A stretch of DNA of 64,000 nt, taken from the NCBI GenBank assembly GCA_951406725.2, contig OX597815.1, forward strand, positions 71,424,001 through 71,488,000, given 5' to 3'. Shown here in pieces: positions 6,662 through 47,210 of the stretch. The notes under the pieces are model-generated. The model was not told where the DNA came from. It worked only from the letters and a program-made list of their open reading frames with translations, and made no database searches. Both the position numbers and the translations under genes were made by a program. Position 1 is the stretch's first letter, and the number at the start of each line of letters is the position of its first letter. This stretch comes from Octopus vulgaris. Its lineage: Eukaryota.

Positions 6662-6694
6662 TGTCAACAGGTTTTGCTTTTGCTAATCATGACA
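6662..6694 (-). ncRNA. Minimal hammerhead ribozyme motif, A3-U8 variant (decayed copy)
   Basis: Minus strand: UGUC-AUGAUUA-GC AAAA GC-AAAA-CCUG-UU-GACA. G12 has changed to A at a CpG site. Confidence 0.55.
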
Positions 6695-7004
6695 GTAAAA
6701 TTTATTTAAATTTGTATTTTCTTAAGAAAGTGTTTTTTGTCCATATTGTGTGTATAGTTTATGAATGATTGATTCAACAAGTAGAAAAATCTAAAGGGAG
6801 GTAATTGTTTATTGTAATTATGGACAGGGAGATTATTGTTCATCTTTCGGTGGGGGAAGGCGAATATATATATATATGTGTGTGTGTGTGTATACACAAA
6901 AATTCAAAAGCTTGAGTAGTGGGGAGAAATATATACAGTGATGGGTATGTAAGCGTGAATCAAATATGTATAGAGATTAAAGTTGGAATGCATAATTTTT
7001 TTTT

Positions 7005-8230
7005 ATTATTGAATCTAAAAGTTTATACTTCAGAACAATTATTTCGTATTTGATGACATCTACTATCGTCAAAAATGTGAAATTGCAATGGGAACAAAAG
7101 CAACCACTGTTCTTGTGAGCCTGATAACAGGTTATTTTGAATTCACCATATATGAAATGTCACTGCAAAGATATGGTTATGCATTTTACCATTACATAAG
7201 AGAAATCTGGAAAAGACACCTGGATGACTGTTTTATCATTTGGAAGGAGACCATTGCTAAACTTTTGGAATTCAAATCAACACTAAATGATATAAATAGT
7301 AACATTCAATTCATAATGGAATAAAGCAAAGCACAGTTCCCATTTTTGGATATTATGATTAAAAAACTGACATTTATCATAAACCAAAGGGCTCAAAGTA
7401 TTATCTCCCTTTTAGTTCATGCCACTCAAAATAAATATCCCCTTTAATTTGGCGAAAATAGTGTTTGATAGAACTACTCGGGACATTCATCTTCAAAACC
7501 TCAGAACAACACTAACTGAAAGACAATATCCACCCTCACTTATAGATGATGGAATTAAGCGTGCCAAGAAATTAGATATAAAAACACTAAGGACAACAAA
7601 ACATAACACCACACCTCATCTCAAAACACTACTGTATATATCAACTCACAACCTTAGAAGCAATGAGGCATAGAACACTTATACAAAATCTTACTTTATT
7701 AACTAGAGACCTAAAAATGAACATCCTGAAGGCAAATAAATTCATTAAATGCAAAAAGCAACACAAATTGCTAAAGAGACTTCTAACAAATCTGAAGTTT
7801 ACACAACAACCACGAAACGAATGGTTAAAAAATGTGGATGCTCAAACTATGGAAAATGCCCCAACGCACTTCAAGGTTGGGATTTCCTTTTCAAACAAGG
7901 AGTGAGGTTCACATTTAAAATCAAATTCACTTGTACCTCTGAGAATCTAATTTATGTAATAACCTGCTTGGGTTGTGGACATCACTATATAGGACAGACA
8001 AGTATGGCATTGAGATGGAGAACCACTCTAAATAAAGAGCAGATCCTGTTCCCACAATACAGAGAGATTCCTTTCCGTGAACACATAGAGATATGTGCAG
8101 TTTTCCCCTTCTACTAGTGAAATTTCACAATTTTCCATTTCTACTAGTGAAAAGATAAACATTTCTTTACAAGAACATTTAAATAAAGAAAATTTATTCA
8201 TCATAAAATAGAGAGCAAATCTACATATGC
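7005..8230 (+). pseudogene. Penelope-like RT plus GIY-YIG endonuclease, degraded
   Basis: NNYFVFDDIYYRQKCEIAMGT..WKRHLDDCFIIW..NIQFIME*..FPFLDI (PLE RT), NIPFNLA..RQYPPSLI (thumb), and FTCTSENLIYVITCLGCGHHYIGQT (GIY-YIG). Multiple frameshifts. Confidence 0.88.
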
Positions 8231-8512
8231 ATGCATAACCAACTTTAATCTCTATACATATTTTAATTCACAATTATATACCCATCGTTGTACATATTTC
8301 TCCCCACTACTCTAGTTTTTCAATTTTTGTGCTTATAATATCTCCCCACCCAAAGAAAGATCAACTATTATCTCCCCTGTCCACAATAATAATGATAACC
8401 AATTACCTCTCCTTAGATTTTTCTACTTCTTGAATCAATCAGTCATAAACTCGACACACAACATAGACAGAAATTTTTTTCTTAAGAAGATACATATTTA
8501 AATAAATTCTAA

Positions 8513-8545
8513 TGTCATGATTAGCAAAAGTGAAACCAGTCAACA
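8513..8545 (+). ncRNA. Minimal hammerhead ribozyme motif, A3-U8 variant
   Basis: UGUC-AUGAUUA-GC AAAA GU-GAAA-CCAG-UC-AACA. The two copies imply the consensus UGUC AUGAUUA GC AAAA GC GAAA CCGG UC GACA. Confidence 0.65.
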
Positions 8546-8710
8546 AACACAGTATAAGCTGTATTAAAAATTATATTAAACTATGTAAAGTGTATGCATT
8601 TTCCTTCTTTAATTTCTTATATATATTACAAACCATCACATGGAGATAATCACGATTCCTCCCTTTCTACTACTACTATATATATGTGTGTGTGTGTGTG
8701 TGTGTGTGAA

Positions 8711-45163: not shown

Positions 45164-45396
45164 TTAATCCTTTAGTATTTAAACTGGCTATATCTGGCCA
45201 CAATATTATATTCTATCAGTTTTATGCTCAAATTCACTTGATCTGGCATCTCATACCTATCCCACAATGCCATTTTAAAAACAAACAGTCTCATCATCGA
45301 AATCTTAAGGTTATAAGATGATGCATGATTAATGCAATACAATATGAATAAATAGGCATTAAATTTTGCAGAGTAATCCGAATGCTAAATGGTTAA
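45164..45396. mobile_element. TTAA-flanked MITE (piggyBac-type ends)
   Basis: TTAA-TCCTTTAGTATT..AATGCTAAATGG-TTAA. Family copies at 45564-45771, 57915-58140 and about 60225-60428. Confidence 0.7.
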
Positions 45397-46927
45397 ACAA
45401 TGTCCTTCAGTTCAAAAGACAACTGGGCCAGTAGCATAGTTGTGAGACAACAAGGGGGCTGTCTGTCATGGGCAATGCTTTTATTGCATTTTATAAGCCT
45501 GTATTGGCTTGGTAGTCACAGTGGGGATGGCAAACTGAAATATGCCACCAGACAGGGCATGCTTTAACCCTAGCCAAAATATTTAACCTGTTTTATATTG
45601 AAACTGGCCAGATCTGGCTTCTGTCTGCCCACAACCCTACAATTTCATTCTAAAAATAAACAATCACATCATTGAAATCTCAAAGCTACAAGTCAATGCA
45701 TGATTAATTCAAAACAATGTAAATAAACAAATATTACATTTGACAGAATAATCCAAATACTAAAGAGTTAAAGAAAATTTAATTGCTATTTCTAAAATGT
45801 TGTACAACTGTGTAAAGGCTTTTCATTGGTACAATAACCATATAATGGTATCTATCACTTAGTAATCACATTTTACTTTTACTGAGTCAAACAAAGGTGA
45901 CTCAGTCTATCTCACTGTAAACATCAACAAAAATTGTTAATATATTCAGTATATAGTTAACTGGCAAAAAACAAAAAAAAAAACAAATAGAAAATTTTTA
46001 CATTTCAGGAAAAGCTTGAGATTTTTAGCTGAAACATCAAATAGACTGAATTGTCATTTCTAACAATGGGTTGGCTAATTTGTCTATAAGTAATTAATTG
46101 TTTCTTAATACTAATGTTATTTCTAGTCTCACTTTCATTTACAACTTGCTGTGATATATATGCCTAACTGCATTTACAGGTTGGTTAAGTGTTTTCAGTA
46201 TTTCTTGGTTAAAGACTGAGTAGGAGAGAGGCAGGGAGAAGCAGAGAGTTACTCCTTGTTTTTTTGGCACAGTTTTGCACTCTTTCTTAGAGTACACATA
46301 GAGAAAAACTAGACAAAGAAACATTTAACAATAACAACAACAGCAGCAGCAACAATAACAACAACAACAACAATAATAACAATAATAATAATAATAATAA
46401 TTAATAATGAATAAATAAATACGTAAAATGTGTAGACAGAAAATTTGTGGAACCTTTCGCTAGCTAAAAAAAAAAACTGTATTAAAATAACATCTGTTCT
46501 GACACAACATGCCTGAAGATGCTTGATAATGTAAACATGTATGTGTAAAAACAAGAAAGCTTTTTGAAAAAGTTACAAGGAGAGAGAGAGTGTGTGTATG
46601 TGGGGTGGGGTAAGGTTCTTAACAGGTAGATTGGATGGGTGAATGGATGAATGCATGGAAGGGCAAACTTAGGTTACGCATTTGGGAAAACAGTAACTGG
46701 AATGGAATTGTAATTTTTAAGGTTTCAAAAACATCAATCATTTTGTTAAAACTATTTTGATATTATTTCTCTTAATTTACAATCTTTCAACTATTGCACA
46801 CAGACTAAAGCTATATTAGTGAATTTGGTAGCAGAAACTGAAAGAAGCCTGGCTATATATATATATATATATAGATGAGTGTATTTTTCCCTTGTTAAAA
46901 TGTCTTACTGACGAGTGTCATTTCTTC

Positions 46928-47012
46928 ACTTCTCTGAAGAGAAGATTACAGTGCTTTACACCATTTATTCCTTTGGAATCATAGTGAAATATTCGAAACA
47001 TGTGTCAGAAGT
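46928..47012 (+). ncRNA. Minimal hammerhead ribozyme, canonical core
   Basis: ACUUCU-CUGAAGA-GAAGAUU..AAUAUUC-GAAA-C-AUGU-G-UC-AGAAGU. Confidence 0.82.
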
Positions 47013-47159
47013 AAAAGTATTTGAATTAAACATGCGTTAAACTCCATTTATTTATTTATATATATATATATATATATGTATATTACGGAGATGTACTTGC
47101 ACAGCAAGTGACCTGATCTGAGATCATGTGCTGAAACAAAAACAATTGCAGTACAGAAT

Positions 47160-47210
47160 TTTGTCAGTGAACAGGTCGCGGTCTGAAAGCGACGAAAATA
47201 TTTTGACAAA
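47160..47210 (+). ncRNA. Minimal hammerhead ribozyme, G3-C8 variant with an extra nucleotide after A9
   Basis: UUUGUCA-GUGAACA-G-GUCGC GGUCUGAAA GCGAC-GAAA-AUAU-UU-UGACAAA, with a 7-bp helix I, a 5-bp helix II and the palindrome AAUAUU. Confidence 0.72.

Follow-up and report, generated by a model that had tools for sequence, protein, structure and literature searches.

Metazoan Penelope-like elements (PLEs) carry minimal type I hammerhead ribozymes of low activity in their pseudo-long terminal repeats (pseudo-LTRs), for which a dimer logic has been described (Cervera and De la Pena 2014, PMC4209133; statements on this and the other papers cited by number refer to the accessible parts of their text). 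Small PLE hammerhead variants that cleave as dimers have also been reported (Lunse, Weinberg and Breaker, RNA Biol 14:1499, via PMC6765202). The canonical hammerhead core contains the pair C3-G8, and natural covariation to U3-A8 has been observed in several hammerheads, where it was described as rare (Perreault et al. 2011, PMC3088659), as well as in Schistosoma PLE hammerheads (approximately 1300 matches; PMC4209133). In the hammerhead of the Anolis PLE Poseidon, the single mutations C3G and G8C each abolish cleavage, and the double mutation C3G/G8C partly restores it (PMC11167929). Here we describe eight motifs of this type in a stretch of 64,000 nucleotides (nt) of the Octopus vulgaris genome (contig OX597815.1, positions 71,424,001 to 71,488,000; hereafter the window). 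They are probably decayed minimal type I hammerheads at the ends of PLEs or of short PLE derivatives, and the swapped core pairs found in half of them, A3-U8 and G3-C8, are family states that have likely been kept paired by selection for the active fold, which is predicted to cut; as judged from the sequences, the A-U and G-C families likely still do so. The observed basis of this reading consists of the motifs and their repeat families, of PLE endonuclease frames that precede the motifs (families A, B, C, E and F), and of covariation between positions 3 and 8, both inside family E and from family to family.

The octopus motifs share with the described PLE class (PMC4209133) the type I topology, the tiny or palindromic helix III, the G10.1-C11.1 pair and the optional extra base after A9, as well as the location behind a reverse transcriptase-endonuclease (RT-EN) frame, the presence of many families per genome, and inverted pairs 100-700 base pairs (bp) apart. 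The short palindromic helix III and the dimer cleavage predicted from it are also features of the variants of Lunse et al. (via PMC6765202). Unlike in the PMC4209133 class, helix II of the octopus motifs may comprise only 2 bp (in a 33-nt motif), and the 56 representatives given in the accessible text of that study include only CUGANGA cores, two UUGANAA cores and one UUGAAGA core, none of them with a purine at position 3 and none from a cephalopod. The accessible text of PMC3088659 names no G3-C8 or A3-U8 hammerhead, whereas one octopus class of approximately 2800 exact matches is canonical in less than 1% of cases. The Anolis double mutation is the same pair swap, but a laboratory mutant rather than a natural state, and A3-U8 is not among the mutants in the accessible part of that report. 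A literature search, which did not extend to the largest variant survey (Lunse et al.), to Przybilski and Hammann 2007 and to some figures and supplements, revealed no natural A3-U8 or G3-C8 hammerhead, and none is present in the accessible text of PMC6765202, PMC7229834, PMC13725137 and bioRxiv 2026.07.22.740005. The words 'hammerhead' and 'ribozyme' are absent from the main text of a recent octopus repeat annotation (PMC13282606).

All eight motifs and cores described in the sequence-only reading of the window were located where that reading had placed them. Family A is represented by a 33-nt hammerhead with A3-U8 in a 3' pseudo-LTR (8513-8545, plus strand; positions 3/8 at 8517/8522), and by a motif on the minus strand at 6662-6694 (6690/6685) within an inverted 5' pseudo-LTR copy (6590-6787) that is 84% identical to the 3' copy. 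These two motifs are the ends of one single insertion, and therefore the series comprises seven families and not eight. G3-C8 is found in the plus-strand motifs of family E (41799-41847; 41809/41814) and family G (47160-47210; 47167/47172), the latter with an extra base after A9. The canonical C3-G8 pair is present in families B (11899-12020, plus strand, with a long helix II; 11904/11909), C (31889-31952, minus strand; 31946/31941), D (35363-35470, minus strand; 35464/35459; an old family, with a median identity of 86% to its majority sequence) and F (46928-47012, plus strand; 46934/46939). A partial inverted copy of family B, corresponding to the 3' half of the motif, lies at 11622-11687 (minus strand), and a second, inverted copy of family D that had been missed in the earlier reading lies at 35579-35728 (plus strand), with the core CAGAUGA (U4>A). 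A scan of the window with positions 3 and 8 left free gave 3 strict hammerhead matches, compared with a mean of 0.37 in 30 shuffled versions; it reported five of the sites and missed the other three, namely the two family A copies and the family G site. The window is AT-rich and contains many microsatellites, within a genome of 2.8 Gb in 227 contigs.

The copies in the window are damaged to different degrees. Changes include G12>A at 6675, G1.1>A at 8542 and A9>U at 11910, and the copies of families C, D, E and F carry CpG-type changes; only the family G copy agrees with its family at all core and helix positions. Two copies fail individually in the core, at 11899 (A9>U) and at 6662, the latter being predicted to be dead because it has lost G12, and the majority of the eight copies are probably dead. 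The core CUGAGGU that had been read at 11899 is indeed present, but owes its last base to this private change, the family core being CUGAGGA. Likewise, the helix III palindromes noticed in the sequence-only reading are perfect in the window only at 47160, but at the family level helix III is palindromic or nearly so throughout: it is perfect in the majority sequences of families A and E (ACCGGU; the 8513 copy has ACCAGU), G (AAUAUU) and D (ACGAUCGU), self-pairs via G.U in family F (ACAUGUGU), and retains a central mismatch in families B (ACAUUUGU) and C (ACCAUUGGU).

A first look at the genome gave 1029 candidate copies of family A, 390 of B, 426 of C, 553 of D, 1577 of E, 1955 of F and 3115 of G, with 40 copies scored per family, and the 30-35 best copies of each, which scored highest in BLAST against the window copy, were aligned. 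In all seven families the majority sequence retains more of the hammerhead than the copy in the window does, and has the type I core U4 G5 A6 N7 N8 A9, G12 A13 A14, A15.1-U16.1 and H17; U4, G5, A6, A9, G12-A14 and U16.1-H17 are conserved at majority level in every family examined. C-G is the joint state of positions 3 and 8 in 29/33 copies of family B, 24/31 of C, 19/30 of D and 25/30 of F, and is not the majority state in A, E and G, which have A-U in 33/35 copies (A), G-C in 31/33 (G), and 19 G-C plus 11 A-U among 33 (E). The series of C-G, G-C and A-U cores that had been read from the window is thus ordinary in its canonical half, but A3-U8 in A and G3-C8 in E and G are genuine family states, and the consensus of these three families does not revert to CUGANGA.

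Because the family counts represent top matches to the window copy, the count for family E was repeated across the whole genome with an exact pattern that was free at positions 3 and 8. The 60 matches comprise 43 A-U, 11 G-C, 3 G.U, 1 A.C, 1 U.U and 1 A.G (hand count), so that 54 are Watson-Crick pairs and mismatched combinations are rare, as they are in the genome sample described below (4/37 not Watson-Crick). The association between the two positions has a Fisher p of 1e-8, the copies not being independent. When 17 of 49 aligned copies with less than 85% identity were dropped, 3-8 was the top-linked pair among 630 pairs of variable columns in the remaining 32; it had ranked only fourth of 10878 before, because truncated flanks were included. 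A single other column tracks positions 3 and 8, so that two of the three columns diagnostic for the subfamilies, of approximately 370, are these two positions. The split of family E into A-U and G-C forms was probably one event, and the three G.U copies form no supported group in the DNA tree.

The pattern extends to the rest of the genome. In 120 evenly spaced stretches of 10 kb (1.2 Mb; matches at a score of at least 9), 33 of 37 matches are Watson-Crick paired at 3-8 (20 C-G, 9 U-A, 3 G-C and 1 A-U), compared with 0.7 of 3.5 matches per shuffle. When the loci as a whole were clustered, each of the 13 clusters with several members had a Watson-Crick majority, with four pair types, the fourth being U-A, which is absent from the window motifs and present in the sample. 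Of the 33 paired matches, 13 would escape a search for CUGANGA, as the sequence-only reading had anticipated for swapped cores, and the Rfam model Hammerhead_1 matched the C-G motif of family F (26.4 bits, below the gathering score of 34) and not the adjacent G-C motif of family G. An Rfam scan of the whole window, in which microsatellite matches dominate, gave no hammerhead among 150 matches listed of 222.

A compact pattern with the helix III ACCGGU yielded 2812 matches, versus 3 for the reversed control; this class is linked to a single radiation of Neptune-like PLEs. Among the first 100 there are 62 U-A, 23 A-U, 10 U.G, 2 G-C and 3 mismatched cores, and no C-G. Forcing C or G at position 3 left only 120 matches, and the 100 of them that were listed include 65 G-C, 23 with G and another base, and 12 with C3, only 2 of which are C-G; canonical cores therefore amount to at most 22 of 2812 (less than 1%). 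The two C-G motifs of this pattern have no match to the protein of the compact class. A second A-U family has A-U in 96 of the first 100 of its 376 matches. In the G3-C8 rows, N17 is A, rarely U, and never C (hand reading), and a G3-C8 hammerhead variant has been found to be less active with C17, which would pair with G3 (PMC3884650). About 14 near-identical G3-C8 motifs are clustered on one contig (G000:C17:44673269-79954532; loci L353-L355) and are candidates for a young family or a local duplication. Another U3-A8 family, with the helix III ACGCGU, is present at L217, L220 and L299 and gave 5 matches in the 1.2-Mb sample. In several young U3-A8 and U3.G8 subfamilies (L348, L349 and others) the best-pairing helix I lies one base off, with an extra U between positions 2.1 and 3; insertions near position 3 have been reported for saltern hammerheads (PMC3088659).

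The proposal that these are PLE-type hammerheads held for families A, B, C, E and F, which have endonuclease frames upstream. The two family A motifs, the 5' one inverted, bracket a Neptune-like RT-thumb-linker-GIY-YIG frame at 7019-8114 (plus strand) that is broken by stops and frameshifts (tblastn match to the L350 frame of 811 aa, E 2e-85). A Neptune-like GIY-YIG remnant (41288-41608, plus strand; tblastn 58% identity, E 2e-32) lies upstream of the family E motif, and an endonuclease-end remnant (32094-32344, minus strand; tblastn E 1e-28) upstream of the family C motif. Matches to the RT-EN frame were found at 17/30 loci of family A and 21/30 of family E, and upstream endonuclease remnants at 3/28 loci of family B, 13/24 of C and 16/24 of F, where the endonuclease is of a type that differs from the Neptune-like type of A and E. 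In A, E and related copies the motif lies 140-440 nt behind the endonuclease end. For families D and G the link to PLEs is tentative and rests on architecture, because no RT or endonuclease remnant was found within 1.5 kb at 24 loci of D and 29 of G. Both families form inverted pairs, and the family G element is non-coding, approximately 230 bp long, with a 5' part that is its own 3' tail inverted; the inverted pairs and the inverted tail fit PLE insertion. Non-LTR retrozymes, which carry a canonical type I hammerhead and are repeated head to tail in units of 170-400 nt, were rejected as carriers, as there is no tandem array at the eight sites and the copies are single, inverted or terminal.

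Neptune-type EN+ PLEs encode an RT, a Cx4CxxC linker and, at the C terminus, a GIY-YIG domain (Craig et al. 2021, PMC8557442), and the octopus elements share with Neptune the order RT-linker-GIY-YIG, the inverted 5'-truncated copies and a 3' tail. The linker is present in the proteins of L350, L017 and L047, and homologues carry PF00078 (RT) and PF01541 (GIY-YIG). Families A and E and their relatives would thus be Neptune-like, a name taken from the linker motif. Unlike Neptune-type PLEs, the young octopus relatives have an extra overlapping upstream open reading frame (ORF). The only intact frames encountered accompany U3-A8 (L350, 811 aa) and U3.G8 (L349, 775 aa), and the young U3-A8 element has an inverted copy that is 99.8% identical. 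The sequences listed as containing this element are contigs, with no RNA record among them. The two overlapping frames of this element (L350 2249-5562; also L348 and L351, and the older L198) are an upstream ORF of 460-480 aa without a Pfam match and the 811-aa RT-EN frame, which has no early Met; a heptamer U-UUU-UUA (approximately 3233-3239) within their 175-nt overlap in L350 lies in the upstream frame and would allow ribosomes to enter RT-EN by a shift of -1. A relative with 70% identity has the overlap as well, and the arrangement is a candidate for programmed frameshifting in an EN+ PLE. A PLE of a different type, with frames of 293 aa and 214 aa, lies antisense to a family A motif at L007, beside a C3-G8 motif with the helix III ACGCGCGU.

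Under the reading of selection for the active fold, the RNA of a source element would fold helices I and II, and two RNA copies would pair through the palindrome of helix III. The 3-8 pair would then position the catalytic core, and the RNA would be cut after N17, probably slowly and probably with the aid of the element's protein. Source elements would switch the pair in two steps via a short-lived mispair or wobble (U3.G8 has been amplified in one subfamily), and inserted copies would afterwards decay neutrally. Predicted energies indicate a cost of approximately 5-6 kcal/mol for helix III in the monomer and a gain of 8.3 kcal/mol for the ACCGGU duplex; the AAUAUU duplex of family G reaches only -0.2 kcal/mol. 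Helices I and II fold as predicted at the family G site (z -2.4), and the 33-nt family A copies fold no better than shuffles (z +1.2 and +0.2). These modelled energies fit dimer or protein-assisted folding.

How often the pair was switched was approached with a protein tree of 40 decayed C-terminal fragments, from which near-duplicates and rows shorter than 140 aa (except L346) had been dropped, and a DNA tree of 51 rows. In the protein tree, U-A and U.G rows group together (100/98), A-U rows form a group that includes one U-A row (93/94), and family E falls into a group of mixed G-C and A-U rows (99/100), which places the A-U, G-C and most U-A forms in one radiation with at least three state changes. 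The sequence-only reading had several lineages swap the core pair; this was overstated, since A and E carry related Neptune-like proteins and most swaps, apart from family G, belong to this one radiation. The number of well-supported independent switches may be as low as three or four.

Several observations weigh against selection for an active, cutting fold. No intact A3-U8 or G3-C8 element was found among seven loci with these cores (L346, L347 and L353-L357), which contain only endonuclease remnants, their paired repeats being 95-99.5% identical where present. The amplified U3.G8 subfamily demonstrates that the 3-8 pair is not always Watson-Crick, and this subfamily and some U-A subfamilies, with helix I shifted by one base, have spread recently in an off-consensus form. 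The independent switches are few, and the trees are weakly resolved, with 7/37 branches starred in the protein tree and 2/48 in the DNA tree. In the Anolis study, RNA reads with an end at the cut site were not seen, and cleavage needs protein and is dispensable for insertion in vitro (PMC11167929).

This need for protein and the dispensability of cleavage also favour a non-catalytic role, in which the motifs are real hammerhead descendants and the A-U and G-C folds are kept for dimerising the RNA, binding protein or fixing where reverse transcription starts, with little or no cutting. Poor cutting of PLE minimal hammerheads in vitro (PMC4209133), the multiplication of Naiads without canonical hammerheads (PMC8557442) and the existence of the young U3.G8 and shifted-helix subfamilies would agree with such a role. 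So would the lack of a clear pile-up of family G copies at the predicted cut site: 174 copies have non-matching sequence directly upstream, and among the 100 listed approximately 8-9 start at that site, whereas the four positions that follow have 2-6 starts each (hand count; confounded by indels in T-runs and by microhomology at inverted joins). However, pairing of positions 3 and 8 belongs to the active conformation (PMC3884650), so that its compensation points to the active fold, and the other core positions listed above are at majority in every family examined. We consider such a non-catalytic role unlikely. Still less probable is a historical accident, in which drift fixed changes at positions 3 and 8 in a few source elements and these were passed on to the copies, with no selection on the pair. 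The copies are not independent and the well-supported switches are possibly only three or four, as such an accident would have it; yet the 13 multi-member clusters are all Watson-Crick by majority with four pair types, and two of the three diagnostic columns of family E are exactly positions 3 and 8, in complementary states. Chance matches in AT-rich repetitive DNA, to which the weak folding of single 33-nt copies and the lack of a hammerhead among the listed Rfam matches might point, are extremely improbable and are ruled out by the family majorities, which are closer to a hammerhead than the window copies, by the genome sample versus its shuffles, by the 2812 versus 3 matches of the compact pattern, and by the constant place behind the endonuclease end.

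Selection for the active fold thus appears to be the best explanation. A wider version of it can be held only tentatively: that a single Neptune-like PLE radiation has nearly dispensed with the canonical C3-G8 pair and has walked among U-A, A-U and G-C via U.G and G.U, with the pair retained and with N17 adjusted in parallel, such that G3 and C17 do not occur together. If so, active hammerheads with A3-U8 and G3-C8 would be known from nature for the first time, and selection would act on PLE cleavage in vivo despite its being dispensable in vitro.

Other repeats of the window include a SINE-like (short interspersed element) abundant repeat with copies at 9433-9614, 22409-22590, 28104-28272, 44462-44643, 57680-57861 and elsewhere (families D16, D18 and D20), one copy of which lies directly upstream of the family F motif, and remnants of Tc1/mariner transposases at 4131-4982 and 12405-12908 (both minus strand). 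A non-PLE long interspersed element (LINE) at 30367-31905 (minus strand), with an open RT frame of 512 aa and an inserted PHD-like finger (Pfam RVT_1, E 1e-32), adjoins the family C motif and is unrelated to it.

The motif class, the dimer idea and the U3-A8 covariation are already in print, and the advance is therefore incremental. The canonical half of the series is ordinary; the swapped half is a family-level variant for which the comparison of copies and families provides good evidence of selection on the pair. CUGANGA descriptors and Rfam would undercount hammerheads in the octopus genome by approximately 40%, as judged from the 13 of 33 sampled paired matches. The sister subfamilies of family E, with approximately one other difference in 370 positions, represent a set of matched natural RNAs. 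PLE hammerheads cut poorly in vitro, and insertion proceeds without cleavage in the one reconstituted system; natural compensatory switches of an active-site pair represent an evolutionary argument that selection acts on the active fold.

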